From: Methanofollis tationis
Lineage (GTDB): Archaea > Halobacteriota > Methanomicrobia > Methanomicrobiales > Methanofollaceae
Direction: 5' to 3'
DNA length: 32,000 nt
NCBI RefSeq assembly: GCF_013377755.1
Contig: NZ_JABXWR010000001.1
Span: forward strand, 227,104-259,103
How positions within the stretch are numbered: the stretch's first letter is position 1; each line of letters starts with the position of its first letter. This document shows, one piece after another, positions 15,029-30,164 of the stretch. Position numbers and translations under genes: made by a program. The notes below the pieces were generated by a model, which was not told where the DNA came from, did not search any database, and worked only from the letters and a program-made list of their open reading frames with translations.

Positions 15029-15223
15029 ACGTGGTGCTCCTGATGAATGTGCGAAAACTCATCTTTTATTTTGCGGCAATTGTTTAAGTGGATTTCTCTT
15101 TGCCCCTCCTGCCGATCTCTAAGAAGGGCGGTTATTTCCCGGCACACCCGCTGCAAAAGCCCGAAACCTCCGGTACCTCTGGCATGGGGCGCATGGCCGC
15201 GCTCCCGGGGACCCCCCCTCCAT

Positions 15224-15455
15224 CATCGAGAAAATACGTCCATATCGCCCCCGGATCCGGGGGTCGCCCGGCCAATCCCGGCCCGTACCGGCGATATCTC
15301 CAGATCCCGGTCCTGCAAAGAGCATTCGAGAAACCAGGGGAATGCCGCCCCCTCTCCTGCCAGGATGGCGGCACGTATGATTGTTAGTACTACAAACCCC
15401 TTCACCCCCTCGCAGACGGCCGGGGGTGGAGCAGGATGCCGGGCGGAATGTGGCC
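15224..15455. repeat. novel non-coding repeat family, copy A
   Basis: It shares ordered blocks with the other four copies (aaaatacg.cc, cccc-ggatcc-gggg palindrome, ccggccaatc, ctctcctgc, tggcggc, gtatgattg, ccccttca, cgca.acggc). It lies 66 nt past the stop of the PIN fragment at 15522. All copies have the same orientation. Confidence 0.8.
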
Positions 15456-15521
15456 TGACTATCGGCCTGATTGGATATAACTGCGTTTTTTATGGTGTTT
15501 TTCTGGTTCGGTGCGGACGGT

Positions 15522-15862
15522 TCACGCTTCCCCTGTCACGGTGAGAATGCGCCTGTACAGCGCATCCTGAATCCAGAACCCGCCCCCCTCCCCGTCCATC
15601 TCCTCGCGCATCGAGGCAACCCGGCCTTCAGCCTTCGCCTGCAACAAAATGCCGATAATACCGGTGACCGGAAGATTGTAGAGTCCGGCGATACGGCGGG
15701 CTTCGGTCTCGTCGAGAAGGAGAATATCGGGTTTCATCTCCAGGGCCAGAGCGATGCTCTCCGACTCACCCGGGTGCAGGTCCTGTTCGAGCAGGTGTAC
15801 CCGGGCTCGACCACACAGTTCTCCTGGTAGGCTCGCGCCGGAAATAATCTCGATGAAAAGTG
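15522..15862 (-). pseudogene. PIN-like (DUF3368-type) toxin gene remnant with frameshift and internal deletion
   Basis: The C-terminal part reads ...LHPGESESIALALEMKPDILLLDETEARRIAGLYNLPVTGIIGILLQAKAEG. The N-terminal part (FSSRLFPARAYQE..VVEPG) is in a different frame. Confidence 0.55.
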
Positions 15863-15901
15863 TTGGAGGGGGCTGGGGCGATCAGAAAATGAATGAGGAA
15901 A

Positions 15902-15998
15902 TCACTGACCTCCTGCGGCTATAAGCGCCCGTATCTCCGGTGTGCCTTTTCTATTCGTCATGAGGTGAGTGATATGGACGATCGCAGCCTCTGAATCG
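15902..15998 (-). pseudogene. 3' fragment of the RelE-like toxin gene that is split by the nested TnpB and IS256 insertions
   Basis: It translates to DSEAAIVHITHLMTNRKGTPEIRALIAAGGQ*. This fits the missing C-terminus (xDxExxIVxIxxIxxR pattern) of the truncated ORF at 18603-18812. Confidence 0.5.
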
Positions 15999-17255
15999 GG
16001 TAGTGTTTCAGATCTTCTGTAATTCGTCTGAGCCCTGTCTCCTTGTTTGATCATTCCCCCTCCATCGTCAAATATCTTCTGCCGGTCACCCACTCCTCAT
16101 TGATGTCCATCAGGATGGATCCTGCCAGCCTGAGGAGTGACTCTTCATTGGGAAAGGCCCCTACAACTTTGGTTCTCCGTTTCAGTTCCTTGTTGACTCT
16201 TTCCATCATGTTCGTCGTTCGGATCCGCTTTGCGTGCTCTTTCGGGAACGCCGTGTAACTCATAAGTCCCGGGATGAATCTCTCGATCGTATTGGCCGCT
16301 TTCCGATATCCTCGTTCGTTCAGATCATCTGCAAGCTGCTGAAGTCTTTCCTCGTCCCCATATGCCTCCTTCAAGGACTCAGCAACTTCTTTCTGATGTT
16401 TCCGTGGAATATTCTTTAAAACCGCCCGGGTGCAATGGACCGAGCACATCTGCCACGATGCGCCGAGGAAGGCGGCTTCCGCCGCCTTCTGGATCCCGGC
16501 ATGACCATCTGAGACAACCATCTTGACACCCACCAATCCTCGTTCTTTGAGGTCTTCGAACAATCCCGACCAGAACATCTCATTTTCACAATCAGTGATT
16601 CTAGCTCCCAGGATTTCCCGGTAGCCATCCATTCGAACACCGGCGATCACCAGAAGAGCTTTGGTGATGTAGCGTGGTCCCTCTCTGACTTTGTAGTACG
16701 AAGCATCCACAAAGAGATAGGGAATCTCCTGTTCAATAGGCCTCTGAAGGAATGCATGGACCTGTTCATCGAGGTCCTTTGCTATCCTGGATACTGAAGC
16801 AGGAGAGAGTTGTTCGATGCCAAAATGAGCAACAATCTCCTGGATCCGGCGGGTTGAGACTCCCTGAAGGTAGGATTCAAAGATAGCATTCTCAAGAGCC
16901 TTCTCAACCCGGGAATAGCGTCCAAATACCTGTGTTTCGAAGGGGAACTCTCGGAATTGTGGTTTCTGGAGGATCGTTTCTCCATATCGGGTTTTTAGAG
17001 AGCGCTTCTTGTAGCCGTTTCGGTGAGCCTTCCGCGCATCGGTTCGTTCATACTGCTCGGCTCCCGCCTGGTGGAGGGCTTCGAGCAGCATCACCTGGTT
17101 GAGGAACCAGGTGATGAGGGTCTTCATGCCATTCTCATTATCGGAAAGATAATCTTCGATTAACGCTAAGGGATCCATGGCCCTGTTTCTCCTTTGTCCA
17201 AATCTAGGTTGGATTCAGGGCCAAATTATTTTTACAGAAGATTCGTTACACTATC
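15999..17255 (-). mobile_element. IS256-family insertion sequence, copy 2, with a perfect 8-bp target-site duplication
   Basis: ctgaatcg occurs at 15991-15998 and again at 17256-17263, directly abutting both termini. The element is near-identical to copy 1 (offset 7098 bp, same orientation). Confidence 0.9.
16051..17178 (-). CDS. IS256-family transposase
   Basis: A 375-aa ORF that matches 8953-10080 except for two residues (ATF/AAF and LQE/LQQ). Confidence 0.85.
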   Translation of the reverse strand: MDPLALIEDYLSDNENGMKTLITWFLNQVMLLEALHQAGAEQYERTDARKAHRNGYKKRSLKTRYGETILQKPQFREFPFETQVFGRYSRVEKALENAIFESYLQGVSTRRIQEIVAHFGIEQLSPASVSRIAKDLDEQVHAFLQRPIEQEIPYLFVDASYYKVREGPRYITKALLVIAGVRMDGYREILGARITDCENEMFWSGLFEDLKERGLVGVKMVVSDGHAGIQKAAEAAFLGASWQMCSVHCTRAVLKNIPRKHQKEVAESLKEAYGDEERLQQLADDLNERGYRKAANTIERFIPGLMSYTAFPKEHAKRIRTTNMMERVNKELKRRTKVVGAFPNEESLLRLAGSILMDINEEWVTGRRYLTMEGE

Positions 17256-17265
17256 CTGAATCGAC

Positions 17266-17420
17266 GGTGTGAACTACCTCGCCCTAAAGGGCGGGGCTTC
17301 CTGCTTCATTCTCCCTCTTTTGAGGCGAGTCCACAGGCTCAGCGGCGCGTTCCGCACCTGATACCCCGAAAAGATTCTGTTCTTGCAGGGCAAACGTCTT
17401 GATATTGTTCGCCGCGTTGA
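17266..17420 (-). ncRNA. candidate omega-RNA (TnpB guide RNA scaffold) overlapping the tnpB 3' end and right end
   Basis: The position follows established TnpB biology. The sequence ends in the hairpin gaagccccgccctttagggcgagg followed by tagttcac at the element boundary. The extent is not determined. Confidence 0.35.
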
Positions 17421-18471
17421 TGTCGCGGTCGTGATAAGTGCCGCAGTCAGGGCAGACCCACTCCCTCTCCGAGAGGGCAAGATCCCGCTTGAGATACCCA
17501 CAATTATTGCATATCTTCGAGGAGGGATCGAATCTCCCGATCTTCAGGAGCGTCTTCCCGTACTTCTGGCACTTGTACTCCAGCATCGCAAAGAACGAGC
17601 TCCACGAAACATCCCCTATCCCCTGCGCCAGATGATGGTTCTTCATCATACCACCAACATTCAGCGATTCCACTGCAATGGCTTGGTTCTCGCTCACGAC
17701 TCGAAAAGAGAGTTTGTGCAGGAAATCGTTTCTCTGATTGGCGATCCGTTCGTGGCACCGAGCAAGATTCTGGATCGCTTTCGCTCGGTTCTTTGATCCT
17801 TTGACCTTCCGAGATACTCGGCGTTGTAATACTTTCAGCCGAGCAAGAGAGTTCTTCAGATATCGTGGATTCTCGATCTTCTCTCCCATGGAGAGAGTTG
17901 CAAAGTCCTTTAGCCCGACATCGATCCCAATAGTTGTGTCCAGAGAGAACGGTGCAGGTTCAGGTTCGGGTTTCCCGTCGTCAACAAGGATGCTGACAAA
18001 CCATTTCCAGGTCGATGTTACGGAAACGGTGGCATACTTCATCTTCCCGGTGAAGACACGGTGGAAGACAGTCTTAACCTCACCGATCTTTGGAAATCTG
18101 ATCTTCCCCAGATCAAAGTCTACGCGATAATGTTGCGGTACCTGAAAGGACTGTACCGGATTCTTCTTTGACTTGAATCGAGGAAATCCTTTTTTCTCGC
18201 GGAAAAACCGGGTGAAGGCATTATCAAGATTCTTGTGTGAACTCTGGAGAGATTGAGCATTAACTTCTTTGAGCCACGGGTGCTCTTCCTTAAGCGCGGG
18301 AAGACGGGTGTTCAGGTCGAAGCAGGAGAGTTTTCGACCTTCCTGCTCATATGCCCGGATCTTCTGCTCCAGAGAATGATTGTAAACAAACCGGCAAGCA
18401 TGGATGTGCTTCATGAGGAGCGTAATCTGCTCCGGTGAAGGATACATCCGATACTTGTAGGCTTGAAGCAT
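17284..18471 (-). CDS. tnpB: TnpB (RNA-guided nuclease, OrfB_IS605 type)
   Basis: The N-terminus is MLQAYKYRMYPSPEQ. The C-terminus is CNNCGY...CPDCGTYHDRDINAANNI (zinc finger plus RuvC-III). The tracked ORF extends to 18552, but an AT-rich box at about 18487-18505 favours the ATG at 18471. Confidence 0.85.
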   Translation of the reverse strand: MLQAYKYRMYPSPEQITLLMKHIHACRFVYNHSLEQKIRAYEQEGRKLSCFDLNTRLPALKEEHPWLKEVNAQSLQSSHKNLDNAFTRFFREKKGFPRFKSKKNPVQSFQVPQHYRVDFDLGKIRFPKIGEVKTVFHRVFTGKMKYATVSVTSTWKWFVSILVDDGKPEPEPAPFSLDTTIGIDVGLKDFATLSMGEKIENPRYLKNSLARLKVLQRRVSRKVKGSKNRAKAIQNLARCHERIANQRNDFLHKLSFRVVSENQAIAVESLNVGGMMKNHHLAQGIGDVSWSSFFAMLEYKCQKYGKTLLKIGRFDPSSKICNNCGYLKRDLALSEREWVCPDCGTYHDRDINAANNIKTFALQEQNLFGVSGAERAAEPVDSPQKRENEAGSPAL

Positions 18472-18486
18472 ACGGGCAGTATTATG

Positions 18487-18505
18487 GATTATAATAAAAT
18501 ATAGT
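18487..18505 (-). promoter_or_regulatory. candidate TATA-like promoter of tnpB
   Basis: The minus strand reads ctatattttattataatcc, ending about 15 nt upstream of the ATG at 18471 (box centre about 25 nt upstream). Confidence 0.3.
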
Positions 18506-18602
18506 TTGTCGTAATAATTGGGATCATACCAGAAGGGCGGCTCCGCTTTCATCCCCGCACCTGTTGGCCGGGGTCTTCTCGCTCCACCCCCTTCACCCCC
18601 GC

Positions 18603-18812
18603 AAGATAAATTACGGTAAACGAACGTGCACTATGCATCCGGTAGATGGACCGGTTTTTGCCGGTATGGAGTCTCTCTTTGTCACCGCGAGAATGAGGAT
18701 AAGGGTTCTCCTTCAGGAGGTTCAGGGTGTCTTTGATGATCCGCTGGCTCTTTGGATCAAGGGAATTCAAAAACGCATAAGCCTCTTCATCCACACAAAC
18801 GCGAAAAACCAC
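18603..18812 (-). pseudogene. 5' part of a RelE-like toxin gene interrupted by the TnpB element
   Basis: MVFRVCVDEEAYAFLNSLDPKSQRIIKDTLNLLKENPYPHSRGDKERLH....IYRMHSARSFTVIY parallels the intact paralog at 19963-20268. After ...VIYL the ORF reads into IS left-end sequence. Confidence 0.65.
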
Positions 18813-18814
18813 AC

Positions 18815-19042
18815 TTACAGCTCCACGAACCTTTTGCGGGCCAGGACAGCCTCAACATCATCTTCGAGTTGCTGTTTTTTGGCATGCTCTACCAGATCGG
18901 CAATGATTTCGTCGAATGTTCTGTCCGGACCCTTGAGATCCGAGATGGCTTTATAGGTTCTTTCTGATACGGGGATGAACTCCGTAGCGGTCATCGAACC
19001 ATGGTAGGTGCTGATCCTACATAGTCCTTCTTTCAGTACCAT
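18815..19042 (-). CDS. RelB-like antitoxin partner of the interrupted RelE-like gene
   Basis: A 75-aa ORF ending 2 nt before the toxin start. FIPVSERTYKAISDLKGPDRTFDEIIADLV resembles the antitoxin at 20265-20522 (IPVKEYTGKSLHDLKEAGQSYDDLLSGMI). Confidence 0.55.
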   Translation of the reverse strand: MVLKEGLCRISTYHGSMTATEFIPVSERTYKAISDLKGPDRTFDEIIADLVEHAKKQQLEDDVEAVLARKRFVEL

Positions 19043-19226
19043 GGGAATGGCTTCCCGGTGCCGGGTTCATTTCATGTGGGAGCCAGCAGGTGCGGGGTAG
19101 GTGACGAAGGCCTCTGCATTGTGCGGACCGGGAAGGGACAGATGCCGCCTGGCCCCTCCCTGTAGCCTCGTGGGGCATGGTCACGGATACTCGTTGTCCC
19201 GGACCGCGTAGAAGGTGTTTGGACGT

Positions 19227-19482
19227 CTACAGCTGTACTGCCTCGCCCGGGTGCAGGTCCTGATCGAGGTCCTCATCGGCATAGTGCCGCGGGATCTTTC
19301 GTGCTCCAGGCAATGCCTCCCACTCCCACCGTTTCACCCCTGCAAGAGCGCATGCCTTCCCGGACGAGAGAATGCCGCGCTGGTAAAGTGCCAGGGCAGG
19401 CCCCTGCAGCCTGGACGGCATCGGGAGGAAGGCGGAGCGCCTGGACGATATCGTGAGGCACCATGATCGTGACGTCTGACAT
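19227..19482 (-). pseudogene. UPF0175-family antitoxin gene, frameshifted and fused to a PIN fragment
   Basis: The N-terminal MSDVTIMVPHDIVQALRLPPDAV and the C-terminal ALALYQRGILSSGKACALAGV.RWEWEAL...KIPRHYADEDLDQD are in different frames (starts 61 nt apart). The 3' end reads DLHPGE, which matches the PIN gene interior. Confidence 0.6.
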
Positions 19483-19572
19483 ACTGCTTCACCTGATAAA
19501 TAGGGATGGGACGGAGATCATAGAATAGTGGTGCTGGTGCTGAATGACCCTCTCTGGTGAGGGGGATAGATT

Positions 19573-19845
19573 GGGTTGAATACGCCCGTATCGTCCCCGG
19601 ATCCGGCGATAGAGCGGGTTGAATACGCCCGTATCGTCCCCGGATCCGGGGATAGACCGGCCAATCACGGCCAGTGTCGCCGGGATCCAGAGCTCCGGCC
19701 ACGCCGGGCGGCATTCGAAAAACCCACGAAATACCGCCGCCTCTCCTGCCATGCTGGCGGCCAGTATGATTGGCAGTAATGGGTCTCCCTTCAAAACCCC
19801 GCATACGGCAGGTGAGGAGACGTGAGTCCGGGTGGAAATCCCCGG
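19573..19845. repeat. novel non-coding repeat family, copy B (includes a 43-bp tandem duplication of its left end)
   Basis: It has the same ordered conserved blocks. 19573-19615 and 19616-19658 are near-identical 43-mers. It lies 117 nt past the RelE-like stop at 19963. Confidence 0.8.
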
Positions 19846-19962
19846 AGTCCTGGCAATGTCCTGAATTTTCTGGCTATGTACGGGGCTAACGCCGTGCAGG
19901 GAACAAAAAAGACGGCTGATCCGGGTCCTGCGGGCGCACACCGTACGGAGGGCCCGGGAGTC

Positions 19963-20268
19963 TCAACCCGATCTGCGTGAATACTCTTTATGGGCCCGCT
20001 CGATCGTTGTGATCGTCTCGATTTTCACGATCTGTTCATTGTCATCGATGATAGAGAACACGGCAAAAGACCTGCTTACATGAAGGCGATACACCGCAGG
20101 AGGATGAGGGTAATCGAGTTTTTCCTTGTTCCCCCCCGGATAGGGGTCATCTCTCAGGTCCAGAATCTTTTCAACGACTATGCGCCGGCTTTTCCCGGGC
20201 AGCTTCTTTAAAAATTCTTCAGCTTTCCTTTCGATAACAAGAGTGAACACGCTTCTCCCACGCCTCAA
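19963..20268 (-). CDS. RelE/ParE-superfamily toxin (archaeal RelE-like)
   Basis: VFTLVIERKAEEFLKKLPGKSRRIVVEKILDLRDDPYP...KEKL....AVYRLHVSRSFAVFSIIDDNEQIVKIETI has typical RelE architecture. The start is TTG at 20268 or, more likely, GTG at 20250. Confidence 0.7.
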   Translation of the reverse strand: MRRGRSVFTLVIERKAEEFLKKLPGKSRRIVVEKILDLRDDPYPGGNKEKLDYPHPPAVYRLHVSRSFAVFSIIDDNEQIVKIETITTIERAHKEYSRRSG

Positions 20269-20522
20269 TCGTCCTTCATGATCGCTTCCGGGTCAAAGGC
20301 GACGAACTCGCCCTCCCTGTCGATATCAACGATCATCTGCCAGTCCCGATAGTCCCGCTCGCGCCGGATCATCCCGGAGAGCAGGTCATCATAGCTCTGT
20401 CCGGCTTCTTTCAGGTCGTGCAGACTCTTCCCGGTGTACTCTTTCACGGGAATGCGCTTGATCTGAAGGCCGCCGGTCTCACTCGTGCTGGGGGATATAC
20501 GGGGTGATCGATCGTGAGCCAC
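20265..20522 (-). CDS. RelB-like antitoxin
   Basis: A small ORF immediately upstream of the toxin, overlapping it, and related to 18815-19042. The true start may be internal. Confidence 0.5.
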   Translation of the reverse strand: MAHDRSPRISPSTSETGGLQIKRIPVKEYTGKSLHDLKEAGQSYDDLLSGMIRRERDYRDWQMIVDIDREGEFVAFDPEAIMKDD

Positions 20523-20524
20523 AA

Positions 20525-20950
20525 TTATTGGTCGGACAAACGCCGTTCCTGGAGATGTTCCTGTATGGCAGCAAAAAATTCTCTGAGAGCAGCGAGATCC
20601 TGGTGGAGGATTGCATAAACCTGTTCGAGGTCAAGATCCCAGTAGATATGGACCAGGACATTACGGAATCCTGCCAGAGCTGAAAGGTCTCGGGTGAGCT
20701 GTTCGGGAAGGATCCCGCTTTCCCCGAGGATCTCAAATGTTTCCCGGTAACTTGCCGGTCTCCGCAATCGCTCTTCTGCGATCAGATCGGTCGCAATATC
20801 AATCGCCGACTGGATCCCGACCATCATCGCATGAAAAACCATGTTCCGGGTATCCCGATCGGAAAAAAACTGCTCCCGGGAGATGCATTGATACCGCTCC
20901 CAGTCTCCAATTGCGTCCTGCAGCTCCCGCATGTGATGAAGAATTCTCAT
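20525..20950 (-). CDS. HEPN-domain toxin (DUF86/HepT-like)
   Basis: A 141-aa ORF. GFRNVLVHIYWDLD contains the Rx4-6H HEPN motif. It has a 4-nt overlap with the upstream nucleotidyltransferase gene. Confidence 0.7.
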   Translation of the reverse strand: MRILHHMRELQDAIGDWERYQCISREQFFSDRDTRNMVFHAMMVGIQSAIDIATDLIAEERLRRPASYRETFEILGESGILPEQLTRDLSALAGFRNVLVHIYWDLDLEQVYAILHQDLAALREFFAAIQEHLQERRLSDQ

Positions 20951-21384
20951 CGTACCTCCGATGCAAGAAGGGCCCTGTCCATCCTGTCGTAGAGAGGCTT
21001 GAGATCGAGGTACTTCGCCATGACATCGGCCTCAAATGCGATCCGCAGCCCCTCATCCCGGGCAAAGACCACGTTTCCTGTCCTCACCACCTCGTACTGA
21101 AACTCCACAGGTGCATTGTTGAGGATCCGAAGGTCCACATCAAACCTCGGGGTGATGCACCGCTCCAGGTCTGATGCGATCGTCATGGAGTACTTGAAGA
21201 GTTCATGGGGTTTCCTCTCCCTGGAAAGGAGGATCCCTATATCGATGTCATGAAAGTCGTTCCGCACCAGGAACGAACCATAGAGGTAACCGAGCAGGAG
21301 ATCCTCGAAACCTGACAGGCACCGGCTGATCTCTTTGATCATCCGTTCTTTATCGATATCGTTTCCATCTCGCCCTGGAGACAT
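20947..21384 (-). CDS. minimal nucleotidyltransferase antitoxin (MNT/MntA-like)
   Basis: LLGYLYGSFLVRNDFHDIDIGILL fits the GSx10-ish DxD nucleotidyltransferase motif. It is paired with the HEPN gene. Confidence 0.7.
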   Translation of the reverse strand: MSPGRDGNDIDKERMIKEISRCLSGFEDLLLGYLYGSFLVRNDFHDIDIGILLSRERKPHELFKYSMTIASDLERCITPRFDVDLRILNNAPVEFQYEVVRTGNVVFARDEGLRIAFEADVMAKYLDLKPLYDRMDRALLASEVR

Positions 21385-21391
21385 GATTGTT

Positions 21392-21580
21392 TCAACCTGA
21401 TACTAGGGTTGGGTGAAGGTAGGATAAAGCTAGCGTTGCACTGAATGCTCTGTTATAGATGGGCCCTCGTCCACGACCTCGCGCCAGACTGCAGGCGGGA
21501 TGCAGACCGATGAAAAGCGTTGGGGTCAGGTGACGAGGAGAATGGATCAGCGGCGAGGAATTACTGACCGCCCGCGGCAT
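21392..21580 (-). pseudogene. PIN-like (DUF3368-type) toxin gene N-terminal remnant, frameshifted and truncated
   Basis: MPRAVSNSSPLIH... is in one frame and FSSVCIPPAVWREVVDEG in another. The gene ends where the MNT cassette begins. Confidence 0.5.
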
Positions 21581-21814
21581 AGGCTTTTGTCCTGATCGAG
21601 GTCCTCATCGGCATAGTGCCGCGGGATCTTTCGTGCTCCAGGCAATGCCTCCCACTCCCGGCGGTTCATCCCTGCGAGACTACACGCTTTCCCGGACGAG
21701 AGAATGCCGCGCTGGTAGAGTGCCAGGGCAGGCCCCTGCGGCCTGGACGGCATCGGGAGGAAGGCGGAGCGCCTGGACGATATCGTGAGGCACCATGATC
21801 GTGACGTCTGACAT
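21547..21814 (-). pseudogene. UPF0175-family antitoxin gene, same frameshift as the copy at 19227-19482
   Basis: The MSDVTIMVPHDIVQALRLPPDAV frame and the ALALYQRGILSSGKACSLAGMNRREWEAL...RHYADEDLDQD frame differ. Confidence 0.6.
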
Positions 21815-21895
21815 ACCGTACGATAGGGATGGGACGGAGATCATAGAATAGTGGTGCTGGTGCTGAATGACCCTCTCTGGTGAGGGGGATAGATT

Positions 21896-22125
21896 GGGTT
21901 GAATACGCCCGTATCGTCCCCGGATCCGGGGATCGCCCGGCCAATCACGGCCAGTGCCGCCGGGATCCGCCGATCCCGGCCCCACAGGCGTCATTCGAGA
22001 AACCCCCGAAATACCGCCGCCTCTCCTGCTCCGCTGGCGGCCAGTATGATTGGTAGTAATGGGTCTCCCTTCAAAACCCCGCATACGGCAGGTGAGGAGA
22101 CGTGAGTCCGGGTGGAAATCCCCGG
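21896..22125. repeat. novel non-coding repeat family, copy C
   Basis: Closest to copy B. It lies 117 nt past the RelE-like stop at 22243 and contains a 9-bp-stem hairpin gccgggatc-cgcc-gatcccggc. Confidence 0.8.
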
Positions 22126-22242
22126 AGTCCTGGCAATGTCCTGAATTTTCTGGTTATGTACGGGGCTAACGCCGTGCAGGGAACAAAAAAGACGGCTGAT
22201 CCGGGTCCTGCGGGCGCACACCGTACGGAGGGCCCGGGAGTC

Positions 22243-22548
22243 TCAACCCGATCTGCGTGAATACTCTTTATGGGCCCGCTCGATCGTTGTGATCGTCTCG
22301 ATTTTCACGATCTGTTCATTGTCATCGATGATAGAGAACACGGCAAAAGACCTGCTTACATGAAGGCGATACACCGCAGGAGGATGAGGGTAATCGAGTT
22401 TTTCCTTGTTCCCCCCCGGATAGGGGTCATCTCTCAGGTCCAGAATCTTTTCAACGACTATGCGCCGGCTTTTCCCGGGCAGCTTCTTTAAAAATTCTTC
22501 AGCTTTCCTTTCGATAACAAGAGTGAACACGCTTCTCCCACGCCTCAA
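22243..22548 (-). CDS. RelE/ParE-superfamily toxin, duplicate of 19963-20268
   Basis: The predicted protein is identical to the first copy. Confidence 0.7.
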   Translation of the reverse strand: MRRGRSVFTLVIERKAEEFLKKLPGKSRRIVVEKILDLRDDPYPGGNKEKLDYPHPPAVYRLHVSRSFAVFSIIDDNEQIVKIETITTIERAHKEYSRRSG

Positions 22549-22650
22549 TCGTCCTTCATGATCTCTTCCGGGTCAAAGGCGACGAACCCGCCCTCCCTGT
22601 CGATACCAGCGATCGTCTGCCAGTCCCGCTCGCACCGGCTCGCCATGACG
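22545..22650 (-). pseudogene. 3' remnant of the RelB-like antitoxin gene (the cognate antitoxin of the duplicate toxin is truncated)
   Basis: It aligns to the 3' end of 20265-20522 with a 9-nt deletion. It diverges after ...cgccatgac, the same junction motif seen in the chimera at 29564-30028. Confidence 0.6.
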
Positions 22651-22957
22651 ACTCCCCTACCTCAGCCGCGTGATCCTCACGTTTGAACAATTGTCCTGAT
22701 CTGATCGAGCATAACCCCTGCCGATCTCACCACATCCCGGGCATCCCTTTCCGGGTACACGCACCCATCATCCGCGCCCTCACAGTGCGCATCGCAAAGG
22801 TGAAATCTTCATGTATTGATGGGGGCAGAATTTTTTCATCGATATTCTCTCTTTTGCTACCCTCTTTTGTGGTGCAGACAGGGTCTGGAGAGCGCTTCGC
22901 CTGGTGAAGTGCAGATCCGGAGAAACTATTTATGTCCGCCCTACAGAGTGAAAATGA

Positions 22958-23581
22958 ATGAAACGATTTGTGGCCACTGCACGGGGGCGTGTCCAGCGGG
23001 TCAGCTATCGGGAGCATGTGTACAACGAGACATTTGAACGGAATATCTCGGGGTACGTGATGAATCTCAAGAACGGGGAGGTCGAGATCGTCGCAGAGGG
23101 GAGCGAGAAGGACCTCCGGGACTTCATCAACGAGATCAATATCATACGAAGACCCATTGCAGTCAAATCGTTCACCGTCAGATGGGAAGAAGCCACAGGA
23201 GAGTACGCCGATTTTGAGATCATCCGGGGAGACATCCAGGAGGAGACATTCGAGCGGATGGATTACGCCGGGAATGTACTGCACAGCATGGATATGAAAT
23301 TAGACCAGAGCCTCCAGTTACAGCGCACGATGCTGGACAAGCAGGACCAGATGCTGGACAAGCAGGACCAGATGCTGGACAAACAGGACCAGATGCTGGA
23401 CAAGCAGGACCAGATGCTGGACAAACAGGACCAGAGCCTCCAGATCGGCAGAGAGACGAAAGAAGAGATTGTAGGGCTCCGGAGCGATACCAGGAAGCAT
23501 CTTGATGACGAGTTTGGGGAGATCCGAAAGGAGCTCGTCTCCATCAAGGAAGCGCTTGCCCGGGCAGGCATCCAGGTCTGA
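22958..23581 (+). CDS. acylphosphatase-like domain fused to a C-terminal heptad-repeat (coiled-coil) tail
   Basis: The N-terminal roughly 90 aa (ARGRVQRVSYREHV...GYVMNLKNGEVEIVAEGSEKDLRDFINEI) resemble the acylphosphatase fold signature VxGxVQGVxFR...GWVxNxxDGxVE. The C-terminus carries five MLDKQDQ units. Confidence 0.6.
   Translation: MKRFVATARGRVQRVSYREHVYNETFERNISGYVMNLKNGEVEIVAEGSEKDLRDFINEINIIRRPIAVKSFTVRWEEATGEYADFEIIRGDIQEETFERMDYAGNVLHSMDMKLDQSLQLQRTMLDKQDQMLDKQDQMLDKQDQMLDKQDQMLDKQDQSLQIGRETKEEIVGLRSDTRKHLDDEFGEIRKELVSIKEALARAGIQV
23330..23434 (+). repeat. perfect in-frame tandem repeat, 21 bp x 5 (atgctggacaa[ag]caggaccag)
   Basis: Read directly. The units differ only by a synonymous aag/aaa change. 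The motif gaccagagcctccag flanks both sides. Confidence 0.95.
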
Positions 23582-23677
23582 TTTACTCTCTCCATCCCGC
23601 GCCAACTGCCCGGGTCATGCGTGCGGTCGTCCTGAGGGTGAGGTTGCGTTCGACGTCCTGATCCCGCTCTCCTCGTT

Positions 23678-23882
23678 CATCGAGAAAATACGCCCATATC
23701 TCCCCTTGATCGGGGGATCGCCCGGCCAATCCCGGCCCTGTGGGCGGCATCGGCAAAAACCCCGAAATACCGCCCCCTCTCCTGCCAGCATGGCGGCACG
23801 TATGATTGTTGGTAATACAAACCCCTTCAACCCCTCGCATACGGCCGGGGAGGGGAAGGGAGTCGAAGTGGGAATCGGGCGA
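23678..23882. repeat. novel non-coding repeat family, copy D (central hairpin segment deleted)
   Basis: It has the same ordered blocks. The palindrome is altered to tcccc-ttgatc-gggga, so the stem is kept and the loop changed. It lies 195 nt past the RelE-like stop at 24078. Confidence 0.8.
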
Positions 23883-23917
23883 ATTCCGGGCAGAAAGGTA
23901 GATTTGCGCGTCTTATT

Positions 23918-23954
23918 GTGAACTGCCCCGCCCAACAGGCGCGGGATAGTTCAC
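23918..23954 (-). other. solo IS200/IS605 right-end-like hairpin motif
   Basis: The minus strand reads gtgaactatcccgcgcctgttgggcggggcagttcac, that is a hairpin followed by cagttcac. This parallels the TnpB element terminus ccccgccctttagggcgaggtagttcac. No tnpB lies adjacent. Confidence 0.45.
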
Positions 23955-24077
23955 TCAGTCCAGAAGCATGCGGGGCTACAGGTGCCTGGCAAAATCGTCA
24001 GGATCGATCCTCGCCAGTTTCAGAACGCCGCGAAGGGTGCCGGTCTTCAAAGAGCTCTGGCAAAGGATCGTCAGGCG

Positions 24078-24326
24078 TTACTGTTCATCCTTATGATACA
24101 GATCCAGAAAGACCAGCAGATCCCTCTGCTGATCATAGCAATACGATAACCGGAATGGGGGGATATATACCTCCCTCGTCTGCTTTCTGCCGTACCTCAT
24201 TGGCTTTCCGATCGCCGGATCATTGATGATCCTGATGATCTGCTGCTTCACCCGGTTCTTCGTCGTGCGATCACGGATCTTTTTGATCGTTTTCTTAAAG
24301 GACGCATCGTAGGCAACAGTCACCAT
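24078..24326 (-). CDS. RelE/ParE-family toxin (YafQ/RelE-like)
   Basis: An 82-aa ORF with YDASFKKTIKKI...RVKQQIIRIINDP..GKPM......REVYIPPFRLSYCYD...LLVFLDLYHKDEQ. It overlaps the upstream antitoxin by 7 nt. Confidence 0.65.
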   Translation of the reverse strand: MVTVAYDASFKKTIKKIRDRTTKNRVKQQIIRIINDPAIGKPMRYGRKQTREVYIPPFRLSYCYDQQRDLLVFLDLYHKDEQ

Positions 24327-24586
24327 GATTCTAGATCATCGATAAAATCGACATCGCTCTTTCTGGTGAATGTACCTTTTTTAAACTCCTCAAATGCCTT
24401 TTCTGTTCTCTCTGCAAAGATAATGTCTTCTTTTAGCTCCGGCTCCAGTTCATCAAGGGGTTTTACGATAAAACGGCCGCCCTCCCTGATGACGAGCAGG
24501 TGTGTCCCCTCGACAAGATCTTTCCTCATAGATGCCGGAATGACGATCTGCCCCTTCGAACTCAGTCTGGTGATGCCAATGTCCAT
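24320..24586 (-). CDS. AbrB/SpoVT-type antitoxin
   Basis: The N-terminus ITRLSSKGQIVIPASMRKDL is the swapped-hairpin AbrB/MazE-like signature. Confidence 0.65.
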   Translation of the reverse strand: MDIGITRLSSKGQIVIPASMRKDLVEGTHLLVIREGGRFIVKPLDELEPELKEDIIFAERTEKAFEEFKKGTFTRKSDVDFIDDLESW

Positions 24587-24812
24587 GGGTGTCCAGTAAG
24601 ATTTATCTTACTCTACCTATATGGCTCTTTGCATGGTGCCGACCGAACGCCTCCGCCCCTCGGTCCTTCCCTCAGGCATCGCAGATGTCGAGCAACGCAC
24701 GGATCAGGGGTTTTTGTGCCGGGCCTCCTGTCCTGTCTCACTGCCGTCCCGGTCATTCCCCGTGGGCCGGGGATATCTATACAACAGAGAAAGATGCATA
24801 TCCCGATCAGCA

Positions 24813-25130
24813 ATGGACACGGCCGCTCTGCAGTGTGGCGGGGAATGCGCGAGGATCGTCGGCATTCTCCAGGCGAAAAAGGCGTACCTGGAGGAGACAT
24901 ACCACGTCAGGTCCATCGGCCTCTTCGGGTCGTGCCGGCGGGGCGAGGAGCGCGAGGGGAGCGATGTGGATATTCTGGTGGAATTCTCCGAAGTTCCGGG
25001 GATCTTCGGGTTTATCAGGCTCGAGCGGTATCTCTCCGAGATCCTCGGAAGAAAGGTGGACCTGGTCGAAAAGAGTGCACTCAAACCCCGCATCGGCCGC
25101 CATGTCCAGAAAGAGGTTCTCTATATATGA
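24813..25130 (+). CDS. minimal nucleotidyltransferase antitoxin (MNT)
   Basis: IGLFGSCRRGEEREGSDVDILVEF is the GSxxRGxxxxxSDxDxLV motif. It has an ATGA overlap with the downstream DUF86 gene. Confidence 0.75.
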   Translation: MDTAALQCGGECARIVGILQAKKAYLEETYHVRSIGLFGSCRRGEEREGSDVDILVEFSEVPGIFGFIRLERYLSEILGRKVDLVEKSALKPRIGRHVQKEVLYI

Positions 25131-25520
25131 CCGCGCGGCGCAGTCCCCTCGATTATGTGGACGATATCCTTGACGCCGTTGACAAGATCGAGATCTTCAC
25201 CGAGGGCATGTCGTATGAGCAGTTTTGCGGGGACGACAAGACCGTCTATGCGGTCACGCGAGCGCTGGAGGTGGATCGGTGAGGCGACCAAATGCATCCC
25301 CCGCGAGGTCAGAGAGAAACACCCTGCTCTTCCCTGGACAGAAATGGCCGGTATGCGGGACAAACTGATTCATGCCTATTTCGGGATCAACAGGGCGATC
25401 ATCTGGACGACGGTCCGGAATGATATTCCCCCGCTCAGGTCTGCGGTCCGGAGTCTCCGTGACGACCTGATGGCAGAGGACGCGAGGGATGAATCTCTCT
25501 TCGAACCCCGCGATCCCTGA
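25127..25520 (+). pseudogene. HEPN/DUF86 toxin gene with a +1 frameshift
   Basis: MTARRSPLDYVDDILDAVDKIEIFTEGMSYEQF...AVTRALEV stops at 25280-25282. IGEATKCIPREVREKHPALPWTEMAGMRDKLIHAYFGIN continues in another frame. An extra g in ggtgGatcgg explains the shift. Confidence 0.7.
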
Positions 25521-25661
25521 CCGGTGCTTCATGCCCCGGCCTGAGGGACGAGATCGTGCTCTGCGCTTTTTTCCAGAGACCTTCCGTGGCCCCGCCTCTC
25601 GTTATCAGGGCGAACGCCATGCAAGGGGCCAGCAGCAGATCGCGGAGACGGGAGCAGCCCC

Positions 25662-25985
25662 ATGGCAACCTCTATTCAGATGGGAGAGGATCAGATGAGC
25701 CTGTATGCGGATGTGCTCGAAAAACGGGATGAGATCCTGCGGATCGCAGCAGGTCACGGTGCTGTTAGGGTCCGGCTCTTCGGCTCGGCCGTCAGGGGCG
25801 AGGAGACCCCGGAGAGCGACATCGATCTCCTCGTCGAATTTGAACCGGGACGAAATCTCCTCGACCATGTCGCCCTCGTCCAGGATCTGGAGGACCTGCT
25901 CGGCCGCACGGTCGATGTGGTGACCGAGGGAGGACTGCACTGGTATATCAGGGACCGCATCCACCAGGAGGCCGTACCCCTGTGA
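25662..25985 (+). CDS. minimal nucleotidyltransferase antitoxin (MNT)
   Basis: RLFGSAVRGEETPESDIDLLVEF motif. The true start may be the internal MSLYADV. Confidence 0.7.
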   Translation: MATSIQMGEDQMSLYADVLEKRDEILRIAAGHGAVRVRLFGSAVRGEETPESDIDLLVEFEPGRNLLDHVALVQDLEDLLGRTVDVVTEGGLHWYIRDRIHQEAVPL

Positions 25986-26339
25986 AAGACGATCTGGCCG
26001 TACCTCATCCATATCCTCGAATGTACCGATAGGATCGAGTCCTACACGCAGGGGGGGCGGGAGGCGTTCATCCGCTCTGCAGAAGTGTATTCCCTGACCG
26101 AAACAATTGCAGACACGTCCATCCATCTGCGACGAACACATGGCATCAGGATCCCCGATGCAGTGATTGCGGCCACCGCACTGGTCCACGACTGTGCACC
26201 CGGAACGAGAGCGATTTTTCCGGGATATGCATGCTTGAGATCGTCAATCCGTTCCGTGGGGAGAACAATCCCGGGAGTACAGACGAGATCGGGTGACATG
26301 GCAAGCAGGGTCGGCCGCGGGAGGAAACCCATATCCTGA
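25982..26339 (+). pseudogene. composite debris: DUF86 N-terminal fragment joined to a VapC/PIN C-terminal fragment, multiply frameshifted
   Basis: Hand translation gives LIHILECTDRIESYTQGGREAF (DUF86 N-terminus), then IRIPDAVIAATALVHDC and, after a shift, TRNESDFSGICMLEIVNPF (PIN C-terminus). Confidence 0.5.
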
Positions 26340-26342
26340 TCC

Positions 26343-26690
26343 GTGCGTACCAGAGGTAATAGCATGCTGACGGCTGAGGGCATCATCGGTGCGCTGGCAG
26401 ATCACCGGGCGCGGATCCGGAGCCTCGGCGTCCGGCGGATCGGGATTTTCGGATCCTTCGTCCGGGGCGAAGAAGGCGAAGACAGCGATATCGATACCCT
26501 GATCGAGTTCGAAGAGGGGAGGCGCTCCTTTGACACCTATATGGACCTCACGTTTTTCCTCGAAGACCTCTTCGGGAGGAGCGTCGACCTCGTCGACCGG
26601 GACACCTTAAAACCGGGTCTTGCACCCCACATCCTCCGGAGCGTCAGGTATGTCCAGGGAATAGAATCTCTATCTAAGAGACATTCTTGA
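26343..26690 (+). CDS. minimal nucleotidyltransferase antitoxin (MNT)
   Basis: IGIFGSFVRGEEGEDSDIDTLIEF motif. An alternative start is the ATG at 26364. Confidence 0.75.
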   Translation: MRTRGNSMLTAEGIIGALADHRARIRSLGVRRIGIFGSFVRGEEGEDSDIDTLIEFEEGRRSFDTYMDLTFFLEDLFGRSVDLVDRDTLKPGLAPHILRSVRYVQGIESLSKRHS

Positions 26691-26988
26691 GGCGATCGAG
26701 AGGATTCAGCGATATACCCGGGGAATGGACTACGAAGCGTTCATAAAGGACGATCTTGTGCAGGACGGGGTGATCCGGAACCTCATGGTGATCGGCGAGG
26801 CCGTCAAACTCATTCCCGAACCGCTCACGTCCGGGCATCCCGGTGTTCCCTGGAGAAAGATTGCAGGCATGCGGGACATTCTCAATCACGCCAATTTCGG
26901 GGTGCATACAGAGATCGTGTGGGATGTCGTCCGGAACAAAATTCCTGATCTGCAGGCTGCGGTCAGGGAGATGCTCGATCTCGCCTGA
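26650..26988 (+). pseudogene. HEPN/DUF86 toxin gene with an in-frame TAG at codon 5
   Basis: atg tcc agg gaa TAG aat ctc tat cta aga gac... gives MSRE*NLYLRDILEAIERIQRYTRGMDYEAF...IGEAVK...WRKIAGMRDILNHANFGV. Only the ORF from Met 26725 is uninterrupted. Confidence 0.65.
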
Positions 26989-27045
26989 TAATCGTTCCCG
27001 CTTCAGGGTGGCGATGGGGAACACTCCATTGGCCCCCCCCTTCAC

Positions 27046-27279
27046 CATTGCCAAAATACGCCCATACCGGGCCCGGATCCGGGGATCGCCCGGCCAATCG
27101 CGGCCCGTACCGCCGTGATCCGCCGATCCATCCCCTTCGGGCGGCATCGGAGAAACCCACGAAATACCTCCCCCTCTCCTGCTCCGCTGGCGGCCAGTAT
27201 GATTGTTAGTACTACAAACCCCTTCAAACCCCTCGCAGACGGCCGGGGAGGGAAAAGGAGTGCAGGCGGAAATCTGGCC
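27046..27279. repeat. novel non-coding repeat family, copy E
   Basis: It has the same ordered blocks and lies 187 nt past the HicA stop at 27467. Confidence 0.8.
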
Positions 27280-27466
27280 ATTACGGCGAGCGTTTCCGGG
27301 TGTGAGCGGACATTTGCGCTGGCATCTCTCCACGTGGAAAAAGGCACGCCAGGGGCTGATGGGATCAGGTGGGACGTGCCCATGTGAAGTGGCGAAGAGC
27401 CTGAAACTACCCTGCAGGGGCCATCGTATCCTGGCGGCACAGTACTCTGTCGAGGAGTTCTGCGCC

Positions 27467-27691
27467 TTACAGGAGGTCCTGGATCTCCTCCCGCTCAATC
27501 CCGGCCCGTTTGAGGATCTCAAGAAGCGTACCGGTCGGCAGAACGCCCGTATGGACCGGTACGACAACCCGGCGCTTTGTCTCAGGATGGTAGAAGAGGT
27601 GGTGGCTCCCTTTCACCCGGCTCAGCACAAAACCCTTCTTCTCCAGGATCCTGATGACCTTCTGGGGCGTGAGTTGGGGAACTTTAGGCAT
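27467..27691 (-). CDS. hicA: HicA toxin
   Basis: PQKVIRILEKKGFVLSRVKGSHHLFYHP....VVVPVH.GVLPTGTLLEILKRAGI is the canonical HicA pattern. Confidence 0.8.
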   Translation of the reverse strand: MPKVPQLTPQKVIRILEKKGFVLSRVKGSHHLFYHPETKRRVVVPVHTGVLPTGTLLEILKRAGIEREEIQDLL

Positions 27692-27956
27692 GGGCTTCGA
27701 CGGTGAGGGTGTACTCCAGCAGGCCCTCCTCGGTCGGGATATCCTCGCCCTTCTCCCGGAGGTCCTCGATATAGAGCTCGATAGCTTCCCGCGCCATCGC
27801 TATCGCCTCGTCGATCGTCTCCCCGTAGGTGACGCAACCAGGAAGCAATGGGACTGTCACGGTATACCCCCCCTCTGGTTCTCTCCGGAGGAGGATGCGG
27901 TAATTCAGGTATTTCATCTCCTTCCACACCCCGCGGATCCGCTCATGATGTATCAA
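27684..27956 (-). CDS. hicB: HicB antitoxin (likely start at the ATG at 27917)
   Basis: YRILLRREPEGGYTVTVPLLPGCVTYGETIDEAIAMAREAIELYIEDL is the canonical HicB N-domain. It overlaps hicA by 8 nt. Confidence 0.8.
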   Translation of the reverse strand: MIHHERIRGVWKEMKYLNYRILLRREPEGGYTVTVPLLPGCVTYGETIDEAIAMAREAIELYIEDLREKGEDIPTEEGLLEYTLTVEAHA

Positions 27957-28258: not shown

Positions 28259-28593
28259 TTCTTTTTGCCCCCTGTGGGGTGTGTGTCATATATCATTCAT
28301 CTCTTTCTGCAGGGTGTCGTCAGCAGAATCGAAGATCCTGAACTGGATGCACCGTCCAGAAAGACCTGTGAACCTTCCGGCAATGATCTCCTTGGCACGC
28401 TCCTGCACCCTCTGCCGGTGCTCACATTGCACACCCATCCGGAGGTATGGGATTGTTATCCTCTGACATGTGCCGGGCAACAAGGTATTTAACGCGGAAA
28501 ACAGGCAAAAAACCCGGCCACTACCTGCCGTCCTGCACCTCCCGTCATATTTATGGTTACATACATACTATGCACTACAAGGAGGCACCGGTC

Positions 28594-28818
28594 ATGCTGG
28601 TTAAATTTGATATCTATTTTGACGGTGAGTTCTGGTGTGCCCGCGGCATGGGTGTGGACATCTTTACGCAGGGCACGACGCTTGACGAACTCATGCAGAA
28701 TATCAAAGATGCCGTAGAACTGCACTTTGAAGAGACTATCGATGCCGGAGAGCAGATCACGGTGGTATCCCTGACAGAACTTCAGGTCGGTTCAATTGCC
28801 AAAATCTCCGGTTGTTAG
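28594..28818 (+). CDS. HicB-family antitoxin (short form)
   Basis: MLVKFDIYFDGEFWCARGMGVDIFTQGTTLDELMQNIKDAVELHFEE. It overlaps the downstream HicA-like gene. Confidence 0.6.
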   Translation: MLVKFDIYFDGEFWCARGMGVDIFTQGTTLDELMQNIKDAVELHFEETIDAGEQITVVSLTELQVGSIAKISGC

Positions 28819-30028: not shown

Positions 30029-30164
30029 GATTGTTTCAACCTGATACCGGGGTTGAGTGAAGGTGGCATAAACCTTACTCTGTGATAGAGAAACCATCGT
30101 CCGCGATTGCTCGCGCCGGAAATAATCTCGATGAAAAGCGCTGGAGGGGCGACATCACCCTGGG

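Follow-up and report, generated by a model that had tools for sequence, protein, structure and literature searches.

What is the intergenic sequence that recurs, always in one orientation, among the toxin–antitoxin (TA) genes of a 32,000-nucleotide stretch of the Methanofollis tationis genome (the window: the whole stretch that was analysed)? We tentatively read this element as a lineage-restricted intergenic module of hairpins under constraint, which may be an RNA and whose copies recombine ectopically and serve as joints for cassette shuffling, although our confidence in this falls somewhat short of even.

Copies of the element and their neighbours

A repeat search and an nhmmer profile over the 32 kb identified five co-oriented copies and none besides (Table 1). 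The profile, built from the five, recovered each with an E-value of 1e-68 to 1e-81, all on the plus strand, and a 23-base pattern gave 5 matches in the window against 0.00 expected from shuffles. The copies and coordinates of the preliminary description were thus essentially right, each of its listed sequence blocks was found in 5/5 copies, and the TA genes past 27.5 kb lack the element, as it had stated (nhmmer, window). The layout is a conserved core of ~225 nt within a unit of ~270–290 bp; beyond the positions first given, weaker similarity extends ~25 nt leftward and 30–55 nt rightward. The only other similarity in the window is a 43-nt tandem duplicate of the left arm of copy 2 (19543–19616), which arose between GGGGATAGA direct repeats. 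Copies 2 and 3 are paralogues in one ~1.1-kb segmental duplication (19257–20369 and 21589–22649), which reduces the independent contexts in the window from five to four. Many further segments of the island are duplicated too (D4, D7, D8, D11–D13, repeat search). Copy 4 has lost 29 nt internally, between CGGCC direct repeats, and its palindrome is a variant, CCCCTTGATCGGGGG.

On the minus strand, the core runs from GATTTCC to GATACGGG, followed by CGTATT. On the plus strand, AATACG stands immediately 5' of the core in 16/16 distinct copies; a complementary CGTAT segment and a GC-rich palindrome in subterminal position, CCCCGGATCCGGGG, come next. Hairpins and palindromes abound in the core, which also carries three ATAC(C)G(G/C)CC motifs in direct orientation and a mostly unpaired conserved central block (CAUUACU..CAAUCAUAC..GCCGCCAG....GGCAGGAGAGG). 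One minus-strand frame is open across the core in ~7/12 copies, and the earlier statement that indels break every frame was overstated. As this frame is broken in several copies and substitutions lack codon periodicity (661:742:839 at positions 1:2:3), we nevertheless agree that the element is non-coding.

Each copy in the window lies 70–198 nt beyond the stop of a minus-strand toxin gene, which is upstream of the element on that strand: the distance to the core is 70 nt for the DUF3368 remnant (copy 1), 122 nt for RelE (copy 2), 198 nt for ParE (copy 4) and 192 nt for HicA (copy 5). The proposed position 3' of toxin genes therefore holds for all five, and for 6/8 distinct upstream contexts across all loci; the remaining two are divergent gene starts (MNT in the related loci L005 and L007, an HTH gene in L089). 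The toxins, first named as a PIN remnant, three RelE-like proteins and HicA, are a DUF3368/PIN remnant, two archaeal RelE, ParE and HicA. The 101-aa ORF was assigned to archaeal RelE by its family profile (PDB 1wmi_A, E 4e-11), and 17/31 of its homologues match Pfam ParE_toxin. On its other side, copy 1 adjoins a DegT-type aminotransferase gene, and copy 5 lies between the 3' ends of HepT (plus strand) and HicA (minus strand). The frameshifted UPF0175 gene directly downstream of copy 2 is preceded by a TATA-like box of its own, located between element and ATG, and copy 3 shows the same arrangement.

The T5–6 terminator-like tracts between toxin stop and element, together with the TATA-like box between element and UPF0175, point to separate transcription units; the toxin operon before copy 2 likely has its archaeal terminator in the T6 tract between the RelE stop and that copy. 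Upstream A/T-rich boxes vary, and that of L089 may belong to the divergently oriented HTH gene. Within the element, the T-tract CGTATTTT at the end of the minus strand of copy 1 is present at this end in only 6/16 distinct copies.

Table 1 Element copies and neighbouring features in the window.
Feature	Position	Strand	Basis or remark
Element copy 1	15203–15485, core 15228–15452	-	Repeat search, nhmmer 15203–15469
DUF3368 (PIN-like toxin) C-terminal remnant	15522–15737	-	Pfam PF11848 E 5.7e-9, tblastn
UPF0175 antitoxin gene, frameshifted	19254–19482	-	Directly downstream of copy 2
Element copy 2	19543–19875, core 19617–19841	-	Repeat search, nhmmer 19621–19859
T6 tract	19905–19910	-	Between RelE stop and copy 2
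Archaeal RelE toxin (101 aa); 85-aa upstream partner	19963–20268; 20265–20522	-	
DUF3368 N-terminal remnant	21463–21580	-	Follows UPF0175 gene after copy 3
UPF0175 gene, frameshifted	21571–21814	-	After copy 3
Element copy 3	21866–22155, core 21897–22121	-	Repeat search, nhmmer 21866–22139
T6 tract	22185–22190	-	Before copy 3
Second, identical archaeal RelE; truncated partner gene	22243–22548; 22535–22649	-	Upstream of copy 3
Element copy 4	23658–23910, core 23682–23880	-	nhmmer 23658–23892
ParE toxin; MazE/AbrB antitoxin	24078–24326; 24320–24586	-	Pfam
Element copy 5	27025–27320, core 27050–27275	-	nhmmer 27025–27292
T5 tract	27338–27342	-	Between HicA stop and copy 5
HicA toxin; HicB antitoxin	27467–27691; 27684–27956	-	Pfam

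Constraint and local hairpins

The core is under constraint, being conserved well above neighbouring spacer DNA. Positional orthologues of copy 1 are found in L004/L006, L007 (1363–1633) and L089 (2295–2567). For the L089 orthologue, identity is 83–85% in the coding flanks, 66% in the element core and 41% in the adjacent spacer, the last being near the highest value among shuffles (37%). Invariant columns are clustered (p about 0.02), but the significance is only marginal (p = 0.12 in a windowed test).

In the local hairpins, 92% of cells pair. Changes on both sides were seen at eight hairpin pairs against 2.6 in shuffles (1/500 shuffles as high) and 2–6 in slid controls, a test that leans in favour of the hairpin set, as this set was derived from the same sequences. 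G.U-type cells number 65 against 23 of A.C type, which favours the minus strand. L089 keeps a hairpin of different sequence at the P4 position, and its CAATC/GATTG pairing contains one compensatory A-U to G-C change. A conserved global fold was not found: RNAalifold arrives at a consensus energy of about -29 kcal/mol, whereas single sequences average an MFE of about -102 kcal/mol; the predicted structure differs between alignments; the z-scores of the MFE disagree, at -2.5 and -3.1 for copy 3 and at 0.0 and -1.1 for copy 5; and ~29 nt of the centre are deletable, as in copy 4. The structured RNA first offered as an alternative is only modestly supported, by the local hairpins and their partial covariation and not by a global fold. 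Like multi-copy sRNA families and 3'-UTR-derived sRNAs, the element has a discrete conserved core, flanked by a terminator-like T-tract and the promoter that follows, local hairpins with strand-specific G.U tolerance and a mostly unpaired conserved central block; unlike them, it has neither an Rfam match nor a conserved global fold. Target complementarity was sought in the window and none was evident.

These observations bear on whether the element has a function at all. It could have none of its own and be the inherited spacer of a tandemly duplicated spacer–UPF0175–DUF3368 unit, later scattered by rearrangements and homogenized by gene conversion, given that 13/17 known copies directly precede a UPF0175 gene or remnant or follow a DUF3368 gene or remnant, that L002 and L007 hold tandem units, that duplicated segments abound in the island and that the clustering of invariant columns is marginal. 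We consider this quite unlikely, considering the gap between core and spacer identity in L089 and the compensatory changes that maintain the hairpins. In addition, no remnant of UPF0175 or DUF3368 is near copies 4, 5 or L005b, UPF0175–DUF3368 operons (72–79% protein identity) occur without the element in other Methanomicrobiales, and the L089 operon has none upstream.

Distribution and reassortment of flanks

The element is very rare. Only 12 further copies were found, on nine metagenome contigs from close relatives, co-oriented within each contig and always among TA genes; all 17 known copies are within TA islands. The best gene relatives are Methanomicrobiaceae, and the source of the window was placed in Methanomicrobiales. 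Comparisons with Rfam, plasmids and phages gave no match, in keeping with its first description as an undescribed element.

The suggestion that gene blocks reassort at the element was borne out. Flank group A pairs with 1–5, B with 1, and C with 3 and 4. One and the same left flank thus meets five right flanks, and complete element-bounded (E) units are present in L007 (E-UPF0175-DUF3368-E) and L005 (E-MNT-HepT-E). At copy 5, the left flank is orthologous to L005 (90.8%) and the right flank to L002. The interior ~185 nt is linked to neither flank: orthologous flanks are 90–100% identical against 65–88% for the interior, and a single interior type (89–98% identical) occurs in four contexts (C/4, A/3, B/1, A/4). 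The element is linked to its 5' flank as far as the P1 loop and to its 3' flank from immediately after GGGCGTATT onwards. The four-gamete test requires a minimum of 26 recombination intervals across the whole element, a mosaic that agrees with homologous recombination and not with a single fixed crossover point. Between relatives, synteny mostly breaks 37–160 nt off the element or inside genes.

The element may alternatively be the recombination site of a dedicated cassette system (integron- or attP-like), with a recombinase encoded outside the window that excises and inserts TA cassettes. Integrons are also known from archaea, and chromosomal integrons typically carry TA cassettes (PMC9668308). 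As in integron attC arrays (e.g., Vibrio VCRs), co-oriented related repeats separate small TA-rich accessory cassettes, the gene 3' end is mostly next to the repeat, and cassettes are reassorted between relatives; the combinatorial flanks, the complete units, the sharp edges of the exchanged interior and the palindrome-rich core with its three direct motifs also fit. However, an attC is a single imperfect hairpin of 55–141 nt with R''/R' core sites, and identity with attC was rejected, as the element has no such sites, no single-hairpin fold, and no integrase in the window or related loci. No recombinase gene adjoins any of the 17 copies, many breakpoints are away from the element (w24041, w22650, w26305, w27401, w31194), incompatible site pairs span its whole length, and a cassette between two copies may comprise several TA pairs of both orientations, as in the 3.1 kb separating copies 4 and 5. 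With boundaries inexact and exchange apparently homologous rather than site-specific, the integron analogy drawn earlier does not stand, and we regard a dedicated cassette system as very unlikely.

In the hairpin-module reading that we prefer, the element lies after the end of a TA operon and before the next unit, often with a T5–6 terminator tract between, in constant orientation. Its co-oriented copies would undergo frequent ectopic homologous recombination or gene conversion, making the element a joint for the deletion, duplication and recombination of TA cassettes. Core constraint may then reflect a role of the minus strand in cis or at the RNA level, for instance as a small structured transcript or as a module that serves processing or insulation between autoregulated TA operons, rather than transposition or integrase-type recombination. 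As counterpoints, selfish or recombination-site DNA forms multi-copy families confined to one narrow lineage more typically than regulatory RNA does, and the sharp edges of the exchanged interior could reflect site-specific cutting.

Comparison with mobile and palindromic elements

A plain MITE, another alternative raised at the outset, was rejected: terminal inverted repeats and target duplications are absent, the right end is fuzzy and all known copies are in TA islands. PATEs and other IS200/IS605-derived archaeal miniature elements likewise lack both features, and have subterminal palindromes and a constant short sequence at one end. The element resembles them in these respects, in its co-oriented copies and in the presence of Y1 transposase and TnpB genes in the same islands (an IS200 TnpA gene in L005, a TnpB gene in the window). 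It might be a non-autonomous mobile element (IS200/IS605-type, PATE- or REP-like) that a Y1/HUH transposase transfers in single-stranded form and inserts 3' of AATACG on the plus strand. Lagging-strand-specific insertion predicts strict co-orientation, a junction without the element in L001 (about 2962–2972) retains the GAATACG flank with the core missing, and the shared interior type in four contexts and the narrow lineage are also consistent. Nonetheless, we judge this unlikely, as the element is unlike the ends of the resident TnpB/TnpA element, its two subterminal hairpins are dissimilar, its right end is diffuse and flank-linked, and the second ATACG-like motif (P1 loop) varies among copies. 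Moreover, the interior is strongly mosaic, no copy was found in any context other than TA islands, and an exact empty site with both flanks orthologous was not found.

Compared with the dispersed intergenic repeats known from bacteria (REP/BIME, REPIN, ERIC and Neisseria Correia elements), the element is longer, has no single repeated palindromic unit, terminal inverted repeats or TA target duplication, and is known, in one shared orientation, only from the TA islands of one archaeal lineage. It shares with them being non-coding, multi-copy, intergenic (often just past 3' ends), rich in GC palindromes, a substrate for recombination and gene conversion, and possibly co-transcribed.

Copies of the element and their surroundings

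The element (E), a non-coding intergenic repeat with a core of about 225 nt, is real: repeat, profile and pattern searches each recovered the same five full copies in the window and no more (Table), and a 23-base E pattern matched five times in the window against 0.00 matches expected from shuffles. Every sequence block listed in the preliminary description was found in 5/5 copies. The sole further match is a duplicate of part of copy 2, and copy 4 is missing 29 nt between CGGCC direct repeats. As copies 2 and 3 lie in a single 1.1-kb segmental duplication, the independent contexts in the window number four.

Coordinates of E copies and other features (window positions unless a related contig is named)
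Feature	Position	Strand	Remarks
E copy 1	~15203-15485	+	left neighbour: start of DegT-type gene
E copy 2	~19590-19875	+	left neighbour: frameshifted UPF0175 antitoxin gene with its own TATA-like box
E copy 3	~21866-22155	+	left neighbour: as copy 2
E copy 4	~23658-23910	+	left neighbour: 3' end of plus-strand gene
E copy 5	~27025-27320	+	left neighbour: 3' end of plus-strand gene
Partial E match	19543-19616		43-nt tandem duplicate, left arm of copy 2
Segmental duplication	19257-20369 and 21589-22649		holds copies 2 and 3
attC regex candidate	28487-28606	both	one site, read on either strand
IS5-family transposase gene	6126-7076	-	adjacent to IS1634 gene
IS1634-family transposase gene	7258-8838	-
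IS256/Mutator-family transposase genes	8953-10080 and 16051-17178	-	identical copies
TnpB (OrfB_IS605) gene	17284-18552
RelE-like ORF, 87 aa	18549-18812		abutted by TnpB gene
Acylphosphatase-domain ORF	22958-23581	+
Tandem 21-nt repeats (five)	23303-23449		within acylphosphatase-domain ORF
MNT nucleotidyltransferase genes	24621-25130, 25662-25985 and 26343-26690	+
HepT-like ORFs	25155-25520 and 26725-26988		after first and third MNT genes
Chimeric ORF	29564-30097	-	MNT part 95% identical to 21014-21313
Third UPF0175/DUF3368 remnant	30850-31189		no E upstream
IS200 TnpA gene with adjacent IS end, contig L005	3628-4167
Stretch without called gene, contig L097	1120-2078		950 nt
Group II intron reverse transcriptase gene, contig L090	2975-4483		RVT_N, RVT_1 and GIIM domains

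Each copy had been described as lying just 3' of a minus-strand toxin gene, and such a gene does stand to the right of all five, with stop-to-core distances of 70-198 nt. Pfam identifies a DUF3368/PIN remnant, ParE and HicA among these right-hand neighbours. Direct searches with a 101-aa ORF beside E gave no match; a profile of its 31 homologues matched the solved archaeal RelE 1wmi_A (E-value 4e-11), and 17/31 of these homologues match Pfam ParE_toxin, so that the family profile settled its identity as an archaeal RelE. A single-sequence AlphaFold model of this toxin was too poor for use (pLDDT 50). Tracts of T5-T6 sit between E and the stops of RelE and HicA. The left-hand neighbours vary among copies.

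Outside the window, the 23-base pattern matched on six metagenome contigs, with 0 matches in viral contigs and 0 among 185,579 species-representative genomes. E was also translated and searched against 5.8 billion database proteins for spurious gene calls; only three calls spanning E were found, which led to two further contigs, and a 90%-identical DUF3368 homologue pointed to one more, more divergent copy (contig L089). This brings E to 17 copies, 16 of them distinct, with nine related contigs besides the window. All 17 lie among toxin-antitoxin (TA) genes, and orientation is uniform within any contig. No copy was found at the loci of DUF3368 homologues with 72-79% identity (Methanogenium and metagenomes), at 80 genome loci around homologues of the WecB-like gene near E, or in plasmids and phages (blastn, distant mode). 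The closest relatives of that WecB-like gene come from Methanomicrobiaceae/Methanoculleus MAGs (69% identity), and the nearest proteins to the DUF3368 toxin are from Methanogenium. A literature search for a comparable element found no description; E is undescribed so far. A more distant relative, L097, has a stretch without called gene upstream of its UPF0175-DUF3368 operon; the E profile does not match this stretch, and some other non-coding element could lie there.

Coding potential, constraint and folding

E had been proposed to be non-coding, and the substitution pattern agrees: changes fall by codon phase as 661:742:839, a count that excludes all six frames, since the phases are shared between them. 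Frames are interrupted in at least four copies by the 29-nt deletion, 1-nt indels or stops. One minus-strand frame (MRGFEG...GRDWPGDPRIRGRYGRI) is open in about 7/12 copies. Among the gene calls spanning E, one (P0001) has no Pfam domain, and the sole Pfam match of the other two (P0002 and P0003) is the adjoining UPF0175 gene. A protein-coding reading was rejected, as the frames are broken and there is no third-position substitution excess of the kind a conserved frame would leave.

Constraint on the core can be gauged from L089, where the E copy corresponds by position to copy 1 as its orthologue and the order is DUF3368, inserted HTH gene, E and DegT. Identity to copy 1 is 83-85% in the coding flanks, 66% in the E core and 41% in the E-DegT spacer, with a maximum of 37% in shuffled controls. 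Invariant E columns are clustered (longest run 8, p about 0.02), with a windowed version of the test not significant (p = 0.12). As the core is conserved above the spacer and invariant columns cluster, the core does not behave as neutral spacer, and the view that E is an inert duplicated spacer, against which the difference between core and spacer speaks, seems to us quite unlikely.

Known structured RNAs were sought with the Rfam 15 covariance models, which gave no hits over the whole window at gathering thresholds and only sub-threshold chance hits over 15-28 kb at E-values up to 10; ARAGORN found no tRNA or tmRNA. A conserved global fold is unsupported: consensus structures shift with the alignment used, sequences folded singly average about -102 kcal/mol whereas the consensus reaches about -29 (ratio ~0.28), and MFE z-scores are inconsistent between copies (copy 3, -2.5 and -3.1; copy 5, 0.0 and -1.1). 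We also drew a set of helices by hand, comprising the P1 hairpin, a CAATC/GATTG long-range pairing, small hairpins, the CCCCGGATCCGGGG palindrome and a terminal GAUAC...GUAUU hairpin. In these local helices 92% of cells pair, and both-sided changes occur at 8 pairs, against 2.6 in shuffles (1/500 as high) and 2-6 in slid controls. L089 retains a hairpin at one helix position despite a different sequence, and carries one compensatory change in the CAATC/GATTG pairing. Support for the helices is modest because they were derived from the same sequences on which they were tested. G.U-type cells outnumber A.C-type ones by 65 to 23, a wobble bias in favour of the minus strand. Taken together, this modest evidence would suit a folded minus-strand RNA or folded single-stranded DNA equally. 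Possible transcript signals are limited to sequence hints, namely A/T-rich boxes that precede the core by 20-55 nt and, in 6/16 distinct copies, CGTATTTT at the E 3' end. A search of the window for small-RNA targets with at least 11 nt of complementarity gave GC-rich chance matches only.

Exchange at the element and comparison with mobile systems

When all copies were aligned with their flanks, the left flanks fell into four groups and the right flanks into at least six, freely combined: left group A occurs with right groups 1-5, C with 3 and 4, and B with 1. Complete E-bounded units exist as E-UPF0175-DUF3368-E in contig L007 and as E-MNT-HepT-E, with inverted cargo, in L005. The suggestion that gene blocks reassort at E is thus borne out. 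Exchange also reaches inside E. Where orthologous flanks are 90-100% identical, the interior between them is only 65-88% identical; one interior type (89-98% identical) was found in four contexts (left/right groups C/4, A/3, B/1 and A/4), and the single locus B/1 has three interior types in three genomes. In a linkage profile, association with the 5' flank stops at the P1 hairpin loop and association with the 3' flank starts right after GGGCGTATT, leaving an interior of ~185 nt unlinked to either flank, and the four-gamete test gave at least 26 recombination intervals along the entire element. This mosaic is the pattern expected when paralogous copies at different loci repeatedly undergo gene conversion with one another, and it argues against one fixed crossover point. 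Direct CGTAT repeats at both interior edges were considered as a recombinase core and dropped, since the 5' motif varies (CGTAT, CGTCT, CGCAT, CTCAT, CGGTT). Many island synteny breakpoints lie away from E (window positions 24041, 22650, 26305, 27401 and 31194, either 37-160 nt off or within genes); homology to contig L088, for instance, begins within the UPF0175 gene at 31194, so this breakpoint is not at E.

We tentatively read E as a constrained, hairpin-rich intergenic module, a view we think possible without yet calling it probable. Co-oriented paralogues would recombine with one another, the recombining copies would serve as joints where TA cassettes reshuffle, and the minus strand of E may give rise to a transcript of its own, apart from the upstream toxin operon. 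Any molecular function of the core is putative. Archaeal TA and defence islands are highly variable, and the shuffling of their modules is poorly understood; E offers a concrete, sequence-defined joint. Close relatives carry identical flanks fused to different cassettes, and divergence of the flanks lags behind the movement of the E interior from locus to locus. Should the exchange be ordinary homologous recombination, E would stand as a clear archaeal instance in which a conserved repeat between genes drives the turnover of cassettes; an enzyme-directed exchange, or an E-derived RNA linked to the control of TA genes, would make it a new system.

The analogy with integrons drawn in the preliminary description was not supported. 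An integron attC has R''/R' sites, a single-hairpin fold and exact cassette limits, and E lacks all three. Both-strand regex scanning of the window for R'' (RYYYAAC) and R' (GTTRRRY) on either side of an imperfect palindrome (about 55-141 nt) gave two candidates, which are one site (Table), and none overlaps E. Consensus folds of E give separate local hairpins, with MFE pairs bridging its two halves a minority that varies among copies (5-45 of 76-111). No IntI tyrosine recombinase was found in the 32-kb window or nine related contigs, and cassette presence or absence is not bounded exactly by E, breakpoints lying off the element and its interior being mosaic. A functional analogue unrelated to attC/IntI can still be envisaged, with E as the site used by a new, dedicated archaeal gene-cassette system. 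A recombinase or HUH enzyme, its gene lying outside the window, would both excise and insert TA cassettes, and perhaps those of other defence systems, at the hairpin-rich core; the DNA might be single-stranded and cut at the interior that AATACG and CGTAT delimit. We regard such a system as very unlikely.

The alternative of a MITE with inverted termini and target duplications likewise fell away. No terminal inverted repeats recur at the termini of four independent copies, no target-site duplications were seen at E, the left end of E is sharp at AATACG but on its right the similarity fades over 30-55 nt according to flank group, and nhmmer detected no similarity between E and the window IS5, IS1634, IS256 or TnpB elements. 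A single-stranded-DNA miniature transposon of the IS200/IS605 type bears some resemblance to E; an element of this type would have neither terminal inverted repeats nor target duplications, but subterminal hairpins and a constant short target sequence next to one end. AATACG abuts the core in 16/16 distinct copies, with the palindrome 10 nt inside, and complementary CGTAT follows; the single E-less junction, in contig L001, keeps a GAATACG flank, and TnpA and TnpB genes occur in the islands. (An apparent stop codon abutting that junction was disregarded, as it falls in no ORF of 55 aa or more.) Against such an origin, the end hairpins of E are dissimilar and its right end is diffuse. Moreover, the ends of the resident TnpB/TnpA elements show no relation to E, and no copy was found outside TA islands. 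We consider this origin unlikely and keep the recombining intergenic module as the preferred reading.

Other features of the island

The region is a TA island dotted with IS elements (IS5, IS1634, two IS256 copies and a TnpB gene). The two IS256 genes agree at 100% over no fewer than 300 nt, which suggests recent activity of this IS; the TA island contains one of them, adjoining the DUF3368 remnant. The IS5- and IS1634-family genes separate the cell-surface polysaccharide genes from the first IS256 copy. The TnpB gene apparently truncates the unassigned 87-aa RelE-like ORF, and an 80-nt IS end of this region recurs (92.5% identical) beside the IS200 TnpA gene in L005. In contig L090, which has no E, about 5 kb separates the intron reverse transcriptase gene and a related UPF0175-DUF3368 operon.

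In the chimeric ORF, an MNT-type nucleotidyltransferase is fused with the C-terminal end of the RelE toxin's 85-aa partner (repeat families D4 and D8), and by its sequence this ORF is an apparent example of recombination within TA genes. The three MNT genes in 24621-26988 have a 70-nt conserved segment (D12) in common. In the acylphosphatase-domain protein, the tandem repeats fall in the C-terminal half and encode DKQDQML heptads.
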